Source of the DNA: an uncultured Acidobacteriota bacterium
GTDB taxonomy: Bacteria; Acidobacteriota; Thermoanaerobaculia; Multivoradales; SZUA-115
DNA: 64,000 nt
NCBI GenBank assembly: GCA_963805975.1
Contig: CAWDVR010000002.1
Location: 768,001-832,000 of the forward strand
Reading direction: 5' to 3'
The translations under genes and the position numbers were made by a program. The first letter of the stretch is position 1; every line of letters starts with the position of its first letter. The notes under the pieces were generated by a model. It saw nothing but the letters and a program-made list of their open reading frames with translations, ran no database searches and was not told where the DNA came from. Below are positions 23,363 through 35,961 of the stretch, in pieces.

Positions 23363-23629
23363 ATGAAAACCGTCGGGGTCGCAGCTTTAAAGGCCAGACT
23401 GAGCGAGCACCTGCGCGAGGTCCAGCAAGGGGAGATCGTGACCGTTGTAGACCGCAAGACGCCGGTGGCACGGCTGGTGCCGTACGAGCGAGAGCTGCCG
23501 ACAGGGCTCAAGGTACGGATGCCCCTGCCGGGCAGTTTGCGGCCGGGCCAAGTACCGCTGCCGGCGCCGGTCGACCTCCCCTTCGACGTGGTCGAGCTCC
23601 TGCTCGAGGACCGCCGGAACGGACGTTGA
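23363..23629 (+). CDS. Phd/YefM-family antitoxin
   Basis: MKTVGVAALKARLSEHLREVQQGEIVTV...PVARLVP. Confidence 0.9.
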   Translation: MKTVGVAALKARLSEHLREVQQGEIVTVVDRKTPVARLVPYERELPTGLKVRMPLPGSLRPGQVPLPAPVDLPFDVVELLLEDRRNGR

Positions 23630-24042
23630 TCGTCTACCTCGACTCTTCCGTGGTGCTGCGCCGGCTGCTGGGCCAGCCTGGAGCCCTAGACTCCTGGGAA
23701 GCCATCGAGCGAGGCGTGGGGAGCGAGCTGGTGGAAGTGGAGTGCCTTCGCACCCTGGATCGGTTGTGGCTCTCAGGCTCCCTGATCAAAGAGACTCTGG
23801 TTGAGCTCCGCGAGGCCGTCTTTCGACTGACTGCCACCCTAGAGGTGGTGTCAGTCTCGCGACCGATCCTCAGCCGCGCAGCGCAGCCGATGCCGACCGC
23901 GTTGGCTACCCTGGACGCGGTCCATCTCGCGACCGCTCTCGCCTGGCAGGAGAACCTCGAGACCCAGCTCCTGATGGCGACCCACGACCAGGCGCTCGCC
24001 GCTGCCAGTCGCGCTTTTGGCTTGCGCGTGATCGGAGCCTGA
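23626..24042 (+). CDS. vapC: VapC-family PIN-domain toxin
   Basis: YLDSS, TLDAVHLATAL, ATHD; start overlaps the antitoxin stop codon. Confidence 0.88.
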   Translation: MIVYLDSSVVLRRLLGQPGALDSWEAIERGVGSELVEVECLRTLDRLWLSGSLIKETLVELREAVFRLTATLEVVSVSRPILSRAAQPMPTALATLDAVHLATALAWQENLETQLLMATHDQALAAASRAFGLRVIGA

Positions 24043-28204: not shown

Positions 28205-30055
28205 ATGTCGATGACGACCTGCCTCCGCGGCACCGCGCTCGCCTGTCTCGCTTTCTCCCTGGCCCTCCCCGCCGCCGCCGTTCGGCCCCAGGTCGAGAAG
28301 GCCAAGGTGAGCTTCGCGCTCGATCGCACCGCCTACGAGCCCGGCACCACGGCTCGCCTCGCCGCGGTGCTGGACATCGAAGACGGCTGGCACGTCAACG
28401 CCAACCCGGCGAGCTTCGACTACCTGATCCCGACCGCGCTCGAGCTCGAGGCGCCGGCCGGCTGGCCGCAGGCCGCGGTGACCTATCCGCAGGGCAAGAG
28501 GCTCCCCTTCGCGTTCGCCGAGGAACCGCTCTCGGTCTACGACGGACGGGTGGCCCTGGTGGCCCGGATGGCGGTGCCGTCCGAGGCCGGCGCGGGGGCG
28601 GTGAAAGTCCGCGCCACCGTCACCTACCAGGCTTGCGACGACAGCTCCTGCCTGCCGCCGGTGACCAAGGAGGAGGAGGTCGAGATCAGGGTTGGCGCCG
28701 GCGGCGAACCGGCGAACGATGGGGTGTTCACGGCGGCGAGCAGTGCCCCCCCGCCCTCGGGCGGCGCGCCCCGGCGCGGCCTCCTCGGCATCCTGCTGCT
28801 CGCGCTGCTGGGCGGGTTGATCCTGAACGCCATGCCCTGCGTGCTGCCGGTGCTCTCGCTCAAGGTCTTCGGCCTGGTCAAGAGCGCCGGCGGGGGGGGC
28901 CGCGCGGTGTCGGCCGGCGCCCTCGCCACCGCGGCCGGCATCCTGATCTCGTTCTGGGCCCTGGCCGCCGCCGCCGTCGCCGCCAAGTCGGCCGGCTCGG
29001 CCGTGGGCTGGGGCATCCAGTTCCAGAACCCCGCCTTCGTCACCTTCCTGACGGTGGTGGTGCTGCTCTTCTGCCTCAACCTCTGGGGCCTGTTCGAGAT
29101 CACGCTGCCGGCGCGGCTCGGCCGCCTGGAGGGCCAGGGCAGGCGCGAGGGCGCCGCCGGCCACTTCGCCTCCGGGCTCTTCGCCACGCTGATGGCGACG
29201 CCCTGCTCGGCTCCCTTCCTCGGCACCGCGCTCGGCTTCGCCCTGGGCCAGACGGCGGCCGTGATCCTCGCCGTCTTCACCGCCGTGGGGATAGGGATGG
29301 CGCTCCCCTACCTGGTGCTCGCGGTGGCGCCCGGTGCGGCCCGGCTGCTGCCGCGGCCCGGTGCCTGGATGGACACGGTGCGGGGCCTGATGGGCTTCCT
29401 GCTGGCCGGCGCCGCGGTGTGGCTGCTCTACGTGCTCTCCGCCCAGGTCTCCCCGGTGCGGCTGGCGGTGATCGAGGTCTGCCTGGTGGTGATCGCGCTC
29501 TTCGTCTGGCTGCGCCACCGCGCCGCGACGGGGCCGCGGCCGGCCGCTCGGCTGCTGGTCACCGGCGGGCTCCTGGCGGCGCTCGTCGCCACCCTGGCCC
29601 TGGCCTGGAAGGTGGAGGCGCCTGCCTCGAGCCGGGCGGCCGCCGAGACGCCGGGGCTGATCTCCTGGGCGCCCTTCGACCGCGCCGAGGCCGAGGCGCT
29701 CGCCGCCGAAGGACGGCTGGTGTTCGTCGACGTGACCGCGGACTGGTGCTTCACCTGCAAGTTCAACGAGAAGCTGGTGCTCGACACGGCCGAGGTGGCG
29801 GGTGCCTTCGCGCGCCAGGACGTGCTGGCGATGAAGGCGGACTGGACCAATCGCAACGACGAGATCGGCGACTACCTGGCGAGCTTCGACCGCTACGGCA
29901 TCCCGTTCTACGTCCTCTACCGCCCCGGCGCTCCGCCCAAGGTGTTCAGCGAGCTGCTGAGCAAGGAGGCGGTGCTGGCGGCCGTGGAGGAGGCGGCGAG
30001 CCTCAGGACTGCCGCTCGCCTTCCTCTGCCTGCCTCTCCTTCGCCTTCTCCCTGA
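28205..30055 (+). CDS. dsbD: Thiol:disulfide interchange protein (DsbD family)
   Basis: GWHVNAN, YQACDDSSCLPP, LNAMPCVLPV, ATPCSAPF, TADWCFTCK. Confidence 0.9.
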   Translation: MSMTTCLRGTALACLAFSLALPAAAVRPQVEKAKVSFALDRTAYEPGTTARLAAVLDIEDGWHVNANPASFDYLIPTALELEAPAGWPQAAVTYPQGKRLPFAFAEEPLSVYDGRVALVARMAVPSEAGAGAVKVRATVTYQACDDSSCLPPVTKEEEVEIRVGAGGEPANDGVFTAASSAPPPSGGAPRRGLLGILLLALLGGLILNAMPCVLPVLSLKVFGLVKSAGGGGRAVSAGALATAAGILISFWALAAAAVAAKSAGSAVGWGIQFQNPAFVTFLTVVVLLFCLNLWGLFEITLPARLGRLEGQGRREGAAGHFASGLFATLMATPCSAPFLGTALGFALGQTAAVILAVFTAVGIGMALPYLVLAVAPGAARLLPRPGAWMDTVRGLMGFLLAGAAVWLLYVLSAQVSPVRLAVIEVCLVVIALFVWLRHRAATGPRPAARLLVTGGLLAALVATLALAWKVEAPASSRAAAETPGLISWAPFDRAEAEALAAEGRLVFVDVTADWCFTCKFNEKLVLDTAEVAGAFARQDVLAMKADWTNRNDEIGDYLASFDRYGIPFYVLYRPGAPPKVFSELLSKEAVLAAVEEAASLRTAARLPLPASPSPSP

Positions 30056-31382
30056 GCGCCCGGAACCTCGCGAGCCGCGCTCCCAGCTCCGCCTCGAAGC
30101 CCTCTCCCCCGGGCTCGTAGAACCGGGTGCCGAGGAGAGTCTCGGGCAGGCAGTCGAGGCCGCCCACTCCTTCCTCCGTGTCCGGCGCGTAGACGTAGCC
30201 CTTGCCGTAGCCCAGGCCCGACATCAGCTTCGTGGGGGCGTTGCGGATGACCAGCGGCACCGGGTCCGCCGGCCGTTCCTCGACCGTCCGGCGCGCCTCG
30301 CCGTAGGCCACGTAGGCGCGGTTGCTCTTGGGGGCCAGCGCGAGGTACACGGCGAGCTCCGCCAGCGCCAGCTCCCCCTCGGGCGAGCCCAGGCGGCGGA
30401 AGGCGTCCCAGGCCGCGAGCGAAAGCGGCAGCGCCTGGGGATCGGCGAGGCCGATGTCCTCGCTCGCCATGCGGGTCATGCGGCGGGCGAGATAGAGCGG
30501 GTCCTCGCCGGAGGCGAGCATGCGGGCGAGCCAGTAGAGGGCGGCGTCCGGGTCGCTCTCGCGCACCGACTTGTGGAGCGCCGAGATCAGGTTGTAGTGC
30601 TCCTCGCCGGACTTGTCGTAGAGCAGCACCTTGCGCTGCGACACGCGCCGCACGTCCTCCGCCTGGATGGCGCCGCCTTGCCCGGCGTCCGCCGCCGCCA
30701 GCTCCAGGAGGTTCAGGAGCCGGCGCGCATCCCCCGAGGCGAGCTGCGCCAGCTCGGCCAGGGCTGCATCATCGGCCGAGACCTCGAGCGCCCCCAGGCC
30801 CCGCTCGGCGTCGGCCAGCGCACGCCGCGCCAGGGCCTCGAGATCCTGTGTCGACAGCGGTTGCAGCACGACCACCCGGCAGCGCGACAAGAGCGCCGCG
30901 TTGAGCTCGAAGGAAGGGTTCTCGGTGGTGGCCCCGACCAGCACAATGTCGCCGCTCTCGACGTAGGGCAGGAAGGCGTCCTGCTGGGCGCGGTTGAAGC
31001 GGTGGATCTCGTCGACGAAGAGCAGGGTCCGGCGGCCGGTGGCACGGCGCAGGCGCATGGCGTCGGCCATCACCTCCTTGACCTCCTTGATACCGGCGGT
31101 CACGGCCGAGAACGGCACGAAGCTCCAGGTGGTCTCGATGGCGATGATGCGGGCGAGCGTCGTCTTGCCGCTGCCGGGCGGCCCCCAGAAGATGAGCGAC
31201 GGCACGCGGTGGTCGGAGATGGCTCGCGCCAGGAAGCCGCCCTTGCCCACCATCTCCTGCTGCCCCACCACCTCCTCGAGGCTCCGCGGGCGCAGCCGCT
31301 CGGCGAGCGGCGTGCCGGCAACGCTCGCCGGCGCCTCCGCCCGCGCGCCGGCTTCCTGGTCGTCGAAGAGGGAGGGGGCCAC
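30003..31382 (-). CDS. rarA: Replication-associated recombination protein A
   Basis: PLAERLRP, WGPPGSGKTT, FVDEIHRFNRAQQD, YDKSGEEHYNLISALHKS, ASEDIGLADP. Confidence 0.96.
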   Translation of the reverse strand: MAPSLFDDQEAGARAEAPASVAGTPLAERLRPRSLEEVVGQQEMVGKGGFLARAISDHRVPSLIFWGPPGSGKTTLARIIAIETTWSFVPFSAVTAGIKEVKEVMADAMRLRRATGRRTLLFVDEIHRFNRAQQDAFLPYVESGDIVLVGATTENPSFELNAALLSRCRVVVLQPLSTQDLEALARRALADAERGLGALEVSADDAALAELAQLASGDARRLLNLLELAAADAGQGGAIQAEDVRRVSQRKVLLYDKSGEEHYNLISALHKSVRESDPDAALYWLARMLASGEDPLYLARRMTRMASEDIGLADPQALPLSLAAWDAFRRLGSPEGELALAELAVYLALAPKSNRAYVAYGEARRTVEERPADPVPLVIRNAPTKLMSGLGYGKGYVYAPDTEEGVGGLDCLPETLLGTRFYEPGGEGFEAELGARLARFRALREKAKERQAEEGERQS

Positions 31383-31683
31383 AGGGTGATTCTATGGCCG
31401 GGAGGCGAGCCGCCGGCTCAACCGGTGCGCTGCGCGGGCCTGGGGCGAGGCAGGAAATAGACGTTCGACCAGGGCCGCAGAAGCGCCCGGCACTCGCGCT
31501 GCGACAGAGCTCGGGAGGCGACGGCCCTGGGCGCACGAGGGCGCCGGGAAGCGAGGATCGGATCGACGCCGCGTTCGAGCACCGCAGCGAGCAGCCACTG
31601 GCAGAGCGTGCGGCGCGCGGCTGAGCCGCGAAAGGTCGTCACCCGAGCATCTTAGCCGCGATGGAACCACGTGTACCTTGCCC

Positions 31684-31726
31684 ATCGTCCATCACGTGGA
31701 CGATAATCGTCCACGTGATGGACGAT
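31684..31726. promoter_or_regulatory. Perfect 43-bp nested palindrome (two ATCGTCCA-N5-TGGACGAT units) over the promoter and start codon of the DUF4143 gene
   Basis: ATCGTCCATCACGTGGACGAT-A-ATCGTCCACGTGATGGACGAT; candidate -35 TTGCCC at 31678 and -10 GATAAT at 31702; ATG at 31718. Confidence 0.75.
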
Positions 31727-32953
31727 TATCAGATCCTCCCTCGCCTGGCTTCCGGCCTGCTCCAACGTGTCATGGAGGTTTCGCCAGTGGTCGTGGTGAT
31801 GGGTGCTCGCCAGACCGGAAAGAGCACTCTCGTCCAATCCGAACCCTCGCTCGCAGATGCGCTCTACCTGACCCTCGACGATCTCGCCGCACGCGAGCGG
31901 GCGATAACCGCCCCGGACGACTTCGTACACAGCGCGCCCCGCCTGATCCTCGACGAGGTCCAACGCCAGCCGGAGCTGGTCCTCGCCATCAAGCGGGCCG
32001 TCGACCGTGATCGCCCGCGTGTCCCCGGCCGCTTCGTGGTCACCGGCTCGGCGAACCTCCTGCTCATGCAACGGATCTCCGAGACCCTGGCCGGCCGGGC
32101 AACCTACGTCACCCTGTGGCCGCTCTCGCGGCGGGAAAAGCTGGGGTTGGGGCGGGCCGGTCTCTGGGACGAGCTCTTTTCGACGCCGCCCCGTCAGTGG
32201 TACGACCTTCTTCGGCAGCAGCCGCCTCGGTCGGTAAGCTGGGAGGCCGAGGTCCGAGTCGGGGGCTACCCGACGCCCGCGGCGGAGCTCAGGTCAGACG
32301 CAGATCGAGCGATCTGGTTCGATGGCTACTTGCGGACCTACCTCGAGCGCGACCTCCAAGACCTCGCCGCGATCGACAACCTGCTGGACTTCCGGCGCCT
32401 GATGCGTGCGACTTGCCTGCGGCTCGGCAACCTCGTCAACCAGGCCGAGCTGGGGCGGGACACGGGCATTCCTCGTCCCACCGTTCATCGCTACCTGAAC
32501 CTCCTCGAGACATCCTTTCAACTGGTGCGCTTGGAGCCCTATGCGGTCAACCGGACCAAGCGACTCATCAAGGCTCCCAAGCTCTACTGGAGCGACCCTG
32601 GCCTGGCCCTCTACCTGAGCGGCCTCGAGCAGCCAACGGGTTTTCACCTGGAGAACCTCGTGCTCGTGGATCTCCTCGTCTGGCGCGATGCACAGGTGCC
32701 GCGGCCGGAGGTTCTCTACTGGCGCACGGCCGCCGGGCTCGAGGTCGATTTCGTCATCGAGCACCGCCGCGGGCTTCTACCCATCGAGGTGAAGGCTACG
32801 TCCCGACCGGGATCGAAAGATATCCGCGCGCTGCAAGCGTTTCGCGACGAGTACCCTGACCTCTTCCTCGGCGGCCTGCTGCTCCACGATGGCGAGGAGA
32901 CGCAGTGGCTCTCGGACTCCATCCTCGCGGTCCCCTGGCATCGGGTCGTCTGA
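31718..32953 (+). CDS. AAA_14 ATPase with wHTH and DUF4143 / PD-(D/E)XK C-terminal domain
   Basis: GARQTGKST, LILDEVQ, VTGSAN, ETLAGR, HTH (AELGRDTGIPRPTVHRYL), KAPKLYWSD, EVDFVIE..IEVK. Confidence 0.92.
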   Translation: MDDYQILPRLASGLLQRVMEVSPVVVVMGARQTGKSTLVQSEPSLADALYLTLDDLAARERAITAPDDFVHSAPRLILDEVQRQPELVLAIKRAVDRDRPRVPGRFVVTGSANLLLMQRISETLAGRATYVTLWPLSRREKLGLGRAGLWDELFSTPPRQWYDLLRQQPPRSVSWEAEVRVGGYPTPAAELRSDADRAIWFDGYLRTYLERDLQDLAAIDNLLDFRRLMRATCLRLGNLVNQAELGRDTGIPRPTVHRYLNLLETSFQLVRLEPYAVNRTKRLIKAPKLYWSDPGLALYLSGLEQPTGFHLENLVLVDLLVWRDAQVPRPEVLYWRTAAGLEVDFVIEHRRGLLPIEVKATSRPGSKDIRALQAFRDEYPDLFLGGLLLHDGEETQWLSDSILAVPWHRVV

Positions 32954-32982
32954 GGAAAAGTGGCCGGTAGGGGCCGCAGCCG

Positions 32983-34008
32983 CTATGCCGGCCGCACGGC
33001 ACCGGCGGCGATCGAGGCCACGACCTGGTCGGTGAACTCGGAGGTCGAGGCCGTGCCCCCCAGGTCGCGGGTATAGACCTGCCGCGTGACGATGGTGTCG
33101 TAGAGGCCGCCGCGCACGCGCTCCGCGATCTCGTTCAGGCCCAGGTGGCGGAGCATGAGGATCGCCGAGCGCACGAGGGCGAGCGGGTTCGCGAGATTCT
33201 TGCCGGCGATGTCGGGGGCGCTGCCATGGACGGCCTCGAACACGGCGACGGTGAGGCCGAGGTTGGCGCCCGGCACCACGCCGAGGCCGCCCACCAGCCC
33301 GGCCGCGAGGTCCGAGACGATGTCGCCATAGAGGTTCTCGAGCACCAGCACGTCGTACTCCTCGGGCCGCACCACGAGCTGCATGCAGAGGTTGTCGATG
33401 ATCTTGTCGTCGAAACGGATCTCCGGGTACTCCTTCGCAACTGTGCGGCAGCAGTCGAGAAAGAGCCCGTCCGACTTCTTCATGATGTTGGCCTTGTGCA
33501 CGGCCGTGACGCGCTGGCGGCCGTGGAGGCGCGCGTAGTCGAAGGCGAAGCGGGCGATGCGCGTGGAAGCCACGGCGGTGATGATCTTCAGGCTCTCGAC
33601 CACCCCCGGCACCACCTCGTGCTCGAGCCCGCGGTAGAGGCCCTCGGTGTTCTCGCGCACGATGATCAGGTCGACGCCGGGGAACTTGGTCGGCAGGCCG
33701 GGCAAGGTGCGCGCCGGCCGCAGGTTGGCGTAGAGGTCGAGCTCCTGGCGGAGCTGGACGTTGATCGAGGAGAAGCCCTTGCCCACCGGCGTCGTCACCG
33801 GGCCCTTGAGCGCCACCTTGTTGCGGCGGATGGACTCGAGCACCTCTGCCGGCAGCGGCACGCCGTGCTTCTCCACCGCCTCGGCGCCGGCCACGTGACG
33901 CTCCCATTCGAAGTCCGCGCCCGCGGCGGCGAGGATCTCGAGCGTCGCATCCGCCACCTCCGGGCCGATGCCGTCGCCGGCGAGAAGGGTGATGGTGGGC
34001 TTGCTCAT
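32983..34008 (-). CDS. icd: NAD-dependent isocitrate/isopropylmalate dehydrogenase family protein
   Basis: GDGIGPEV, SINVQLRQELDLYANLRP, RENTEGLY, VHKANIMK, NLYGDIVSD, FEAVHGSAPDIAG. Confidence 0.88.
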   Translation of the reverse strand: MSKPTITLLAGDGIGPEVADATLEILAAAGADFEWERHVAGAEAVEKHGVPLPAEVLESIRRNKVALKGPVTTPVGKGFSSINVQLRQELDLYANLRPARTLPGLPTKFPGVDLIIVRENTEGLYRGLEHEVVPGVVESLKIITAVASTRIARFAFDYARLHGRQRVTAVHKANIMKKSDGLFLDCCRTVAKEYPEIRFDDKIIDNLCMQLVVRPEEYDVLVLENLYGDIVSDLAAGLVGGLGVVPGANLGLTVAVFEAVHGSAPDIAGKNLANPLALVRSAILMLRHLGLNEIAERVRGGLYDTIVTRQVYTRDLGGTASTSEFTDQVVASIAAGAVRPA

Positions 34009-34194: not shown

Positions 34195-35961
34195 ATGGAG
34201 CAAGGGAAGAATAGAAAAGTATGCCCTCGCTGGCGGGCTGCCGCGCTCGCGGGAGTGCTGGCTGCCACGGGGACTACCGCCGCAGTCGCGGCCCCTCACC
34301 ATTCGACGTTCGTGGATCAGTCCGTGCTGTCGGTGATGGAGCCGGGCAAGGCCTACCGCGTGCGGGTGCGGCTCAAGAACACGGGGACGAACACCTGGAG
34401 CGCGGCGCAGAGCTACCGCCTCGGCTCGCAGAACCCGCAGGACAACATGACCTGGGGCCTCAACCGCGTCAACCTGCCGGCAGGGCTGAGCGTCCCGCCC
34501 AACGCCATCCACGAGTTCGTCTTCGACGTCCAGGCGCCCTCGGCCGCCGCCACCTACAACCAGCGCTGGCGGATGGTGCGCGAGGGGGTCGAGTGGTTCG
34601 GCGACTTCACGCCGAACGTGGCGGTGCGCGTCAACTCGAACCTGGGCTGGAAGGGCACGCACCTCTCTCGCATGTGCCGGGTGTGGGCGCTCGGCAACCT
34701 CGGCGCTCGCCAGACCGTGCCGGGCGTGAGCTATCTGGACCTCGCGGACCGCGTGGCGCAGGCTGGCTGCCGCCTGCTCAACTGGGGAGGCTCGGGCTGG
34801 GACAAGGCCACCGACGGGCACGCCTTCGCGGCGACCGATCCCTACTGGGACCGTGCCGAGGCGTTCATCCACCGCACCAAGACGGGCAACCCCGAGGCAC
34901 GCTTCATCTACACGCTGGCCGAGGTCATGCACCCGAGCAAGGTGGCAACGGTGCAGGAAGGGCTCCCGGTGTGGACGGACATCGCGCCCCTCGAGTGCCT
35001 GCGCGACTCCCCGGCCCTCAAGCGCTACATGTTCCGCTGGTTCTTCAAGGAAAACGACGACGTGGTGTGTACCCCTGCCGGCCAGCCGGTGCCGGCCGGG
35101 GGCTGCCGCTGCTCCACGCACCCGACCTGCCCGTCGAACCATTTCTGCCCTGCCACCACGACCAACCCGGAGTGGGTGAACCACATCCCAGACGTGCGGC
35201 AGGAAGCGACGAAGGTCTGGTGGGCGAAGCTCGCGAGCCACGCCTGCAGCAGCGGTTTCGAGGACATCAACTTCAGCCTGGCTTTCCGCTCGGCCAGCCT
35301 CGACTGGCCCGCCTATGGGAACCTCCAGGAGATCATGAACCGGGTGCGAGCGGTCGCCTGCGGTGCGGACACCAGCTTCGGGGTGGAGGACCTGCGTCGC
35401 GCGCCGGAGGGCGCGCCACCGCTGGCCAGCATCGGCGAGCGCTTCCTCAAGCGGATCGACAAGATCCAGAAGCTCTCGCCTGGCGAAACCTACAACAGCC
35501 GCGGCTGCTTCCAATTCGACAACGACCCCGGCCAGCCAGGGGACCTCTGCATCCCACGCGAGCGGTTCGAGACGCCGGGTTATCCCGCGAGCTACGGCTC
35601 GCCGTATGTGGAGCTCGACGGGGACTCTCGCTGGCGGTTCTTCACCGCGTCCTACGAGGCGCGCCGGCGGTTCCTGCTCCACAGCCTGCGCTCGGCGCGG
35701 GCGACCTACGGCAACGGCGTGCCGACCTTCTTCGAGGTGCCGATGGTCCTGCCGGTGCCGGCGGCGTCGTTCACCGAACAGTTGGGGCCCTTCGGCGATC
35801 CCATCGGTTGGAGCCTGACCTGGGACGACCTCGAGGACTCGGCCGGGCCGCTCCCGGTATGCTCGACACCCGCCTGGCCGGGCGGAGCGCCCTTCCCGGT
35901 TCACGGCGTCGCCGATCTCTGGTCGTGCGGCCACGGGGACCTGTTCCCCGCGAGCTGGTGA
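34195..35961 (+). CDS. Secreted hypothetical protein: NBR1-like Ig domain followed by a Cys/Trp-rich unknown domain
   Basis: Signal peptide; 'RLKNTGTNTW...YRLGSQNPQDN.TWG...WRMVREGVEWFG' Ig-like module; long ORF with GC-rich third positions. Confidence 0.7.
   Translation: MEQGKNRKVCPRWRAAALAGVLAATGTTAAVAAPHHSTFVDQSVLSVMEPGKAYRVRVRLKNTGTNTWSAAQSYRLGSQNPQDNMTWGLNRVNLPAGLSVPPNAIHEFVFDVQAPSAAATYNQRWRMVREGVEWFGDFTPNVAVRVNSNLGWKGTHLSRMCRVWALGNLGARQTVPGVSYLDLADRVAQAGCRLLNWGGSGWDKATDGHAFAATDPYWDRAEAFIHRTKTGNPEARFIYTLAEVMHPSKVATVQEGLPVWTDIAPLECLRDSPALKRYMFRWFFKENDDVVCTPAGQPVPAGGCRCSTHPTCPSNHFCPATTTNPEWVNHIPDVRQEATKVWWAKLASHACSSGFEDINFSLAFRSASLDWPAYGNLQEIMNRVRAVACGADTSFGVEDLRRAPEGAPPLASIGERFLKRIDKIQKLSPGETYNSRGCFQFDNDPGQPGDLCIPRERFETPGYPASYGSPYVELDGDSRWRFFTASYEARRRFLLHSLRSARATYGNGVPTFFEVPMVLPVPAASFTEQLGPFGDPIGWSLTWDDLEDSAGPLPVCSTPAWPGGAPFPVHGVADLWSCGHGDLFPASW

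Follow-up and report, generated by a model that had tools for sequence, protein, structure and literature searches.

PDC-S01 ranks among the most abundant predicted defence genes and has no shown function or ligand. It has been counted 29,494 times in bacteria and 9,986 times in archaea and is called the fourth commonest defence of prokaryotes, and its architecture is an ATPase fused to a PD-(D/E)xK domain (PMC12988326); it is described as very abundant and unvalidated (PMC12988326, PMC13356809). The PDCs were defined by embedding and show low association with other systems (10.1101/2024.01.29.577857). We analysed a stretch of 64,000 nucleotides (nt) from an uncultured Acidobacteriota bacterium (hereafter the window; assembly GCA_963805975.1, contig CAWDVR010000002.1, positions 768,001 to 832,000), in which the start codon of a PDC-S01 gene, encoding a protein of 411 amino acids (aa) here named P0001, lies within a perfect 43-bp palindrome. 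With a probability of roughly 0.78, we read this palindrome as an array of four half-sites over the predicted -10 and the start, an operator through which P0001, binding with its predicted winged helix, would silence the gene that encodes it. That nuclease or toxin genes regulate themselves is already well known; the residue-base code and the link to Thermus are new here, and a defined DNA site with such a code would be the first direct handle on PDC-S01.

Among systems with described operators, the C protein C.Esp1396I of type II restriction-modification binds two dyads on the promoter of its nuclease operon as a cooperative tetramer, and several C-protein-controlled transcripts are leaderless (PMC2691842). 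C proteins are separate small helix-turn-helix (HTH) readers accompanied by a methyltransferase, whereas the reader in P0001 is predicted within the ATPase-nuclease chain, and its gene has rarA-like and isocitrate dehydrogenase (icd)-like flanks with no conserved partner. AbiEi and Rv2827c antitoxins bind cooperatively to inverted repeats in their own promoters and so regulate themselves negatively (PMC7319586). AbiE, however, is a two-gene toxin-antitoxin system with a nucleotidyltransferase toxin and no ATPase, while the P0001 locus has a single gene with a convergent downstream neighbour, unlike type IV AbiE. The mode of action of P0001 is likely to resemble C-protein double operators and AbiEi autoregulation, with membership in neither group, nor in Avs.

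In domain order the likeness is to STAND proteins, which are defined by a P-loop ATPase, a helical domain with a GxP motif and a winged helix. The archaeal STAND-like PAB2304 (2QEN) and SSO1545 (2FNA), Avs5 and NLR modules carry ATPase, helical domain and winged helix in the same order as P0001. P0001 differs in its length of just 411 aa, its C-terminal effector and the lack of a repeat sensor domain, and the literature covered yielded no account of a STAND protein whose winged helix reads the promoter of its own gene. AVAST/Avs proteins are defined by an N-terminal effector and a large C-terminal repeat sensor, whereas P0001 has a C-terminal nuclease motif, no repeat domain and no match to an Avs model. 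Orc1/Cdc6 (2QBY, 2V1U) and iteron-binding Rep proteins likewise combine an AAA+ module with a winged helix reading specific DNA and show helical phasing of their sites, and replication initiators autoregulate; their fold match is weaker, and P0001 differs by its C-terminal nuclease motif and by dyads that lie on a promoter, not an origin. By its full-length profile, P0001 is a member of PDC-S01/COG1373 (PF13173 + PF13635), with which it shares the single gene and the lack of a fixed partner, and the protein of this locus shows no difference from the family. The literature covered, to which most subscription papers do not belong, gives no account of an operator array, self-regulation or a helix-base code for PDC-S01, a passage of 10.64898/2026.10.19.760177 included.

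A four-half-site array over the predicted promoter and start codon

The two arms of the palindrome (31684-31704 and 31706-31726, 21 nt each) are 100% complementary with a gap of 1 nt, and each has the 8-5-8 layout ATCGTCCA-N5-TGGACGAT, exactly as an earlier model-made note on this DNA (the original prediction) had described. The arm pattern has two exact matches in the window and three with at most 3 mismatches, where 0.12 would be expected and none of 100 shuffles attains three. With 0-1 mismatch, the arm motif occurs at just these two places in the 5.36-Mb genome, and it therefore belongs to no genome-wide repeat family; a REP-like family, for which many dispersed copies would be expected, was rejected. 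The 43-bp element ranks fifth in length among the 29 perfect inverted repeats of the genome (arms of at least 14, loop of at most 10). The three longest (G000 C4:369709, C2:477388 and C2:619310) have one common sequence, which is REP-like and unrelated to the operator.

Read as an array (Table 1), the element starts right after a candidate -35, covers the -10 and ends with 9 nt that form the ATG at 31718 and the following two codons, an arrangement that agrees with the original prediction. The combination TTGCCC/18 nt/GATAAT is the sole sigma70-like promoter in 31000-33600 (0.1 expected), being a consensus match and not a mapped promoter, and an in-frame GTG at 31715 offers an alternative start of the gene. 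An assembly artefact is unlikely, because near-identical arrays occur in relatives and contigs from other DNA runs have the same order; a 45-nt piece over the array was found in another DNA run with 7 differences. In the mechanism that we propose, a dimer would occupy the inner dyad and further subunits the outer half-sites, with four heads on one DNA face at the 22-bp period, and the filled array would block RNA polymerase. The ATPase-nuclease would thereby be held at a low level, the cassette could control itself in any new host with no partner gene, and paralogues with different helices could coexist.

Conservation of the array

In the first survey, covering the best 80 genome loci, related dyads were found at the equivalent position. 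The larger set comprised the 263 family genes with clean upstream DNA, out of 269 that are unique and full-length. An inverted repeat of 9 bp matching at 8 or more positions lies upstream of 170 of them, against 39 in shuffles, 78 in farther-upstream windows, 68 of 257 downstream regions and 80 of 300 other starts. Direct matches of 18 nt upstream of family genes peak at a lag of 22 (30 vs 0-1), and a four-half-site score (threshold at least 32 of 48) peaks solely at period 22. Among the 76 close loci 44 reach it, with none in shuffles or far windows; among the 187 distant loci 19 do, against none in shuffles and 5 in far windows. By eye, many other subfamilies have single long dyads or nothing clear, and the 22-bp array is a mark of some subfamilies, including that of P0001. 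At 151 of the 164 loci with at least 45% identity, a dyad occupies the equivalent position, and the array-bearing gene is distributed over many phyla. When the inner dyad itself was searched against 401 genomes, with the reversed motif as control, 10 genomes had one site each and the control gave 0; eight of these sites coincide with a family gene start, the ninth precedes an apparent family N-terminus without the remainder, and one is chance-like.

Three paralogues in the same genome, 53, 32 and 29% identical to P0001 (found at G000 C2:415049(-), C3:389874(-) and C5:291911(-)), have a different, private palindrome upstream of each. The C5 palindrome is a double array of 22 bp, shared within its clade, in which the dyads are even-centred (TACTCA type). 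The C3 paralogue and the P0001 locus share a GT(T/C)CAC-N3-GTGGAC core, so cross-talk between them is possible. Sister clades have 22-bp arrays of their own (L245, L246, L109, L268, L104 and L379-L381), with the helices xTLKRY and STARR and the array types TCA[AG]CCAC and ATCCACCAC. The array is longer by one additional unit in 2 of 151 loci, and that upstream of L072 is lengthened to about four 22-bp units. At L542 (G083), an R-type gene is broken into two frames with its four-site operator intact.

The outer half-sites are retained at 19 and 20 of 23 R-type loci, at 38 and 26 of 64 Q-T/S-type loci, and at 1 and 2 of the 64 loci of the QPQ-type clade, which keeps the inner dyad almost alone. 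This makes the inner dyad over the -10 the core, which is the likely primary dimer site, and the outer sites its extension. The same pattern bears on a two-step switch, in which upstream half-sites would activate at low protein level and the full array would repress, in the manner of restriction-modification controllers; C.Esp1396I activates from its distal and represses from its proximal site (PMC2691842). In R-type loci the -35 is directly adjoined by the first half-site, from where an activator could contact polymerase, and the -35 at the P0001 locus is weak (TTGCCC). Such a switch is nevertheless very improbable, given a universal inner dyad on the -10, the near absence of outer half-sites from the QPQ-type clade, and near-consensus -35 hexamers in several R-type relatives. 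The best TTGACA-like hexamer stands at an equal offset (-27 from the array centre) in 20 of 23 R-type relatives.

The first in-frame start is located 12-13 nt from the array centre in 134 of 149 loci, and a Shine-Dalgarno-like word was found in 1 of 151; because of this spacing and this rarity, the transcript is likely to be leaderless or near-leaderless. The original prediction had also offered a DNA cruciform, or an mRNA hairpin hiding the start codon. As RNA, the full array region folds at -37.7 kcal/mol (z -7.0), but the transcript from the predicted promoter (from about 31714) would include just the final 13 nt of the array and is no more stably folded than shuffled sequence (z -1.4), and read-through across the array is not expected because the upstream gene points away. 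Perfect 21-bp arms occur in 2 of 151 relatives, among which the commonest count is 8 mismatches. Complementarity of the 3-nt spacers, seen in 7 of 42 against an expected 3.6, is marginal, 102 of 2000 permutations reaching that value. The perfection at the P0001 locus is therefore incidental, and a structural role, already largely refuted by this conservation pattern, retains next to no probability because perfect pairing is not conserved.

Covariation between the predicted recognition helix and the half-sites

Covariation was assessed in 199 genes with at least 38% identity, of which 164 have at least 45%. Of these, 151 allowed registration by their GAT-N-ATC centre and 13 were dropped. At base 4, all 46 inner half-sites of R253 loci have G, and 255 of the 256 of Q253 loci have A. 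Likewise, T255Q goes with A at base 6 at 54 of 64 loci (A6 without Q255, 0 of 87), and H257Q with C at base 5 at 4 of 5 (C5 without Q257, 0 of 135). A palindrome over the start that co-varies with the recognition helix, as the original prediction had asked of homologues and paralogues, was thus found in the pairs R253/G4, Q253/A4, T255Q/A6 and H257Q/C5. Arginine-guanine and glutamine-adenine are standard helix-base contacts. R253, T255 and H257 rank first or tied first among 403 columns, with Matthews correlation coefficients (MCC) of 1.0, 0.87 and 0.89; H257 ties with A177, and T255 with Y259, which also lies inside the helix. Plain mutual information favoured many-state columns over T255 for base 6, and the binary measure was adopted afterwards, once this first result had been seen.

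The R/Q rule is obeyed at 5 of 5 loci outside the set (L539, L541, L542, L547 and TT_P0211 of Thermus thermophilus HB27), which are kin of the same clades. On trees built with the helix region removed, the three residue-base traits change 2, 1 and 3 times. A 49-row tree (25 R rows and 24 of 139 Q rows) places H257Q/C5 in two separate positions within the R clade and leaves the position of the outlying R locus L363 open. At L017, which was left out of the counts, the helix is RTTVNR and the half-site is shifted (ATCGACC type); this single case suggests a pairing of N257 with A at base 5.

A number of points weigh against self-repression through this code. The traits changed independently only about five times, and well-supported branches offer 1, 1 and 2 independent pairs for the three of them; with just one or two per trait, no p-value is reachable in a tree-aware sign test. 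Shared descent and a strong clade marker, M28 (MCC 0.95), could produce a part of the same signal. The presence of the inner dyad at 151 of 151 loci is partly built in, because registration demanded inner symmetry, and the 13 loci dropped for want of a clean dyad include L378, which has Q253 with one G half-site, and L445, which has no dyad. One Q257 locus retains T5, as do loci with R, L or G at 257. Furthermore, the last half-site overlaps the start codon, and 168 of 187 distant loci fall under the array threshold, most distant subfamilies being without the 22-bp array. Taken with these points, the comparison among relatives provides strong circumstantial evidence, not proof, that P0001's own helix reads the operator.

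A separate host transcription factor could read the site instead; repressor sites commonly take the form of dyads over a -10. However, the genome has no second site with at most 1 mismatch, and the site accompanies the gene across many phyla, differs between paralogues, follows the gene's own helix and has no conserved neighbour gene, which makes a host factor scarcely credible. The idea of the original prediction, a self-contained module with its own tandem operator, is supported by conservation, paralogue-specific operators, covariation and an empty site (see below), with the refinement that the universal unit is the inner dyad and not two 8-5-8 arms.

Predicted structure of P0001

The original prediction had read an ATPase, an HTH and an EVDF...IEVK motif from the translation. 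P0001 matches the Pfam families AAA_14 with 88 bits (cut-off 27) and DUF4143 with 129.4 bits (cut-off 28.1), HTH_IclR lies slightly below its cut-off, and the motif is present. The PADLOC model of PDC-S01, PDLC04790, matches aa 5-409 (E 3.3e-109). NCBIfam has no family for P0001, matches in the ESM Atlas are to AAA_14/DUF4143 clusters only, and a sequence search of the PDB returned only 2FNA, weakly.

An AlphaFold model from a 39-row alignment (mean predicted local distance difference test score, pLDDT, 91) comprises an ATPase core, a helical domain, three helices plus a beta hairpin and, at the C-terminus, an alpha/beta domain; helix 253-265 is placed as the third helix of the winged helix. 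Fold searches covered about aa 1-300 (whole-model match aa 1-292), with the C-terminal domain outside. Top-ranked are two archaeal ATPases, 2QEN (Z 15.7, root-mean-square deviation (rmsd) 4.6, 256 aligned) and 2FNA (Z 15.2, rmsd 4.0, 254 aligned), followed by NLR modules and Avs5 (Z 11.7 and 11.0), and Foldseek adds Orc1/Cdc6 initiators (2QBY, Z 10.3, rmsd 7.5). G183 and P185 are invariant in the 39 alignment rows, and together with the model and the matches to 2QEN, 2FNA and NLRs they place P0001 in the STAND class.

DUF4143 has been placed in the PD-(D/E)xK superfamily with function unknown (PMC3424549). The C-terminal domain of P0001 has the conserved acidic residues and the (D/E)xK motif of that superfamily, so that the nuclease is a predicted one; folded by itself the domain gave an unusable model (pLDDT 42), and its profile match to the Holliday junction resolvase Hjc (1GEF) is weak (E 0.36). 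G29, G34, K35, E80 and R127 are identical in 199 of 199 relatives, and the nuclease motif residues are nearly so (E312 199, D344 198, E357 196 and K359 198 of 199). Since the residues of both sites are close to invariant, the ATPase and the nuclease are probably both under selection.

Putative function and the Thermus homologue

The family has already been named as a defence candidate, and defence is its putative function. The reading of the biological role of P0001 that we tentatively prefer, at somewhat less than even probability, is a one-piece sensor-effector against mobile DNA, in which a trigger, e.g., processed foreign DNA, would cause an ATP-dependent change leading to operator release and nuclease licensing. 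Extended to all of PDC-S01, it would describe single-gene sensors of foreign or processed DNA that repress themselves, each paralogue on a private operator, with a STAND-like winged helix as reader of a three-residue code, release by a trigger (as with Thermus Argonaute plus plasmid), an armed nuclease and up to 30 mutually orthogonal copies per genome; this wider version is unlikely.

Two observations give the defence step no support. One PDC-S01 coding sequence, vector-induced in Escherichia coli B, was not among the protectors against T4, T5 and T7 (10.1101/2024.09.26.614923). Immediate neighbours with a PADLOC match number 17 of 120, against 9 of 95 controls (p=0.40), where the 120 were taken from 214 cluster representatives and the control matches come from 2 of 12 regions. 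The operator may bear on the negative phage screen, in which the coding sequence was used without its own promoter.

A gene on plasmid pTT27 of T. thermophilus HB27, identified as TT_P0211 by coordinates and sequence, is 57% identical to P0001 and has Q253, T255 and H257 and, as the code predicts, a ATCATTCA dyad that lies 12 nt ahead of its start; published induction data for it make a test of the operator cheap. With a plasmid present, its RNA rises in the wild type from about 24 to 156 fragments per kilobase per million (FPKM), i.e., 6.6-fold, and in the absence of Argonaute by 1.6-fold, which is not significant (PMC4406477). A CRISPR array lies upstream of TT_P0211, the CRISPR RNAs rise in the same Argonaute plus plasmid condition, and the gene just upstream goes from 199 to 314, a similar absolute gain. 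For these reasons read-through may explain the induction of TT_P0211, which the authors list as reverse to the CRISPR array (PMC4406477). On a plasmid of T. thermophilus SG0.5JP17-16 (L535, 3022-4242), the Thermus homologue stands immediately upstream of a type I-C cas3-cas5c operon.

Genomic context and insertion of the cassette

Table 1. Position of the features discussed, in window coordinates
Feature	Position	Strand	Basis or remark
rarA/mgsA-like flanking gene	30003..31382	-	Pfam/NCBIfam-type matches
Remnant, 79% identical to 5' end of TPR-CHAT reading frame in G101	31422..31621	-	Outside module
Stretch missing at equivalent site of same-genus genome G101	31622..32979	.	Promoter, operator and gene only
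Predicted -35 hexamer TTGCCC	31678..31683	+	Sigma70-like consensus match
Putative operator array, four 9-bp half-sites, alternating orientation	31684-31726	.	Inverted-repeat and motif analysis, relatives
Half-sites of array	31684-92, 31696-704, 31706-14, 31718-26	.	Dyad axes 11 bp apart, period 22 bp
Inner dyad TGGACGAT-A-ATCGTCCA	31697..31713	.	Kept by all subtypes
Predicted -10 hexamer GATAAT, at array centre	31702..31707	+	Sigma70-like consensus match
PDC-S01 / AAA_14+DUF4143 gene, 411 aa (P0001)	31718..32953	+	Pfam, PADLOC, open reading frame
AAA_14 ATPase core, aa 23-140	31784..32137	+	Pfam; Walker A G29-S36 at 31802-31825, Walker B D79-E80
Predicted winged helix, aa 222-300	32381..32617	+	AlphaFold model; helices 222-234, 242-249, 253-265, then beta hairpin with basic loop
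Predicted recognition helix, aa 253-265	32474..32512	+	R253, T255, H257 co-vary with operator bases 4, 6, 5
PD-(D/E)xK-like nuclease domain	32630..32950	+	Pfam DUF4143, conserved residues
Isocitrate-dehydrogenase-like flanking gene, convergent	32983..34008	-	Pfam/NCBIfam-type matches

The gene stands alone between rarA and icd, as originally reported, to which we add the remnant of about 200 bp between rarA and the promoter. The same-genus genome G101 aligns to the window up to 31621 and resumes from 32980, and the sequence AGCCGC is found at both junctions (31654-59 and 32978-83), a weak repeat. By this alignment, the PDC-S01 unit is a bare 1.3-kb insertion of promoter, operator and gene. In G101 the rarA-icd interval holds an ECF sigma/TPR-CHAT cluster (L347:4500-9560), of which the window retains 200 bp. 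At 8 of 19 relatives' loci the rarA-icd gap is 29-320 nt without the gene, and no family gene lies within 1.5 kb of rarA at any of the 19 (0 of 19); the interval is a turnover site, and the locus comparison that the original prediction had proposed finds the gene in the window and missing from the equivalent site in relatives. The GC content at third codon positions is 0.82 in the PDC-S01 gene vs 0.94-0.95 in the flanking genes, and a contig from another DNA run has the same gene order as the window locus.

These observations could also suit an array that serves as a docking or recombination site for cassette movement, through operator ends or an initiator-like nicking site, with gene control secondary. 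Beyond the bare insertion and the Orc1/Cdc6 initiators among the fold neighbours, the neighbours are nearly all different among close relatives (259 neighbours in 214 clusters, 193 of them singletons, with no conserved neighbour or partner gene), and family matches, present in 59 of 101 genomes of the phylum, number 0-30 per genome and are dispersed. A second operator copy (18 of 19 matching) lies at most 100 nt behind the gene at 3 of 133 loci, against 0 of 139 control windows. The other 130 loci, however, lack a downstream copy, as does the P0001 locus, where a cassette with matching operator ends was rejected for that reason; the empty G101 site has no operator, and post-stop sequences are unrelated among close relatives. 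The array is always on the promoter and start, with just 1-2 of 10 motif sites lacking a gene, and viral contigs contained no relative with the operator/gene patterns searched. Cassette movement as the primary role of the array is accordingly improbable, and self-repression remains the preferred reading.

A second array occurs right after the stop codon at L432:3818, L441:3822 and L516; behind this array, L432 and L441 have a handful of codons that look like a family N-terminus. Annotated phages contain four unannotated records at 24-31% identity. Elsewhere in the window, 34195-35961 encodes a predicted protein of 588 aa with a signal-peptide-like start, an N_BRCA1_IG domain, a cysteine-rich stretch and no other Pfam match, and a PIN-domain gene (23626-24042), 7.6 kb from the P0001 locus, is likely part of a toxin-antitoxin pair.

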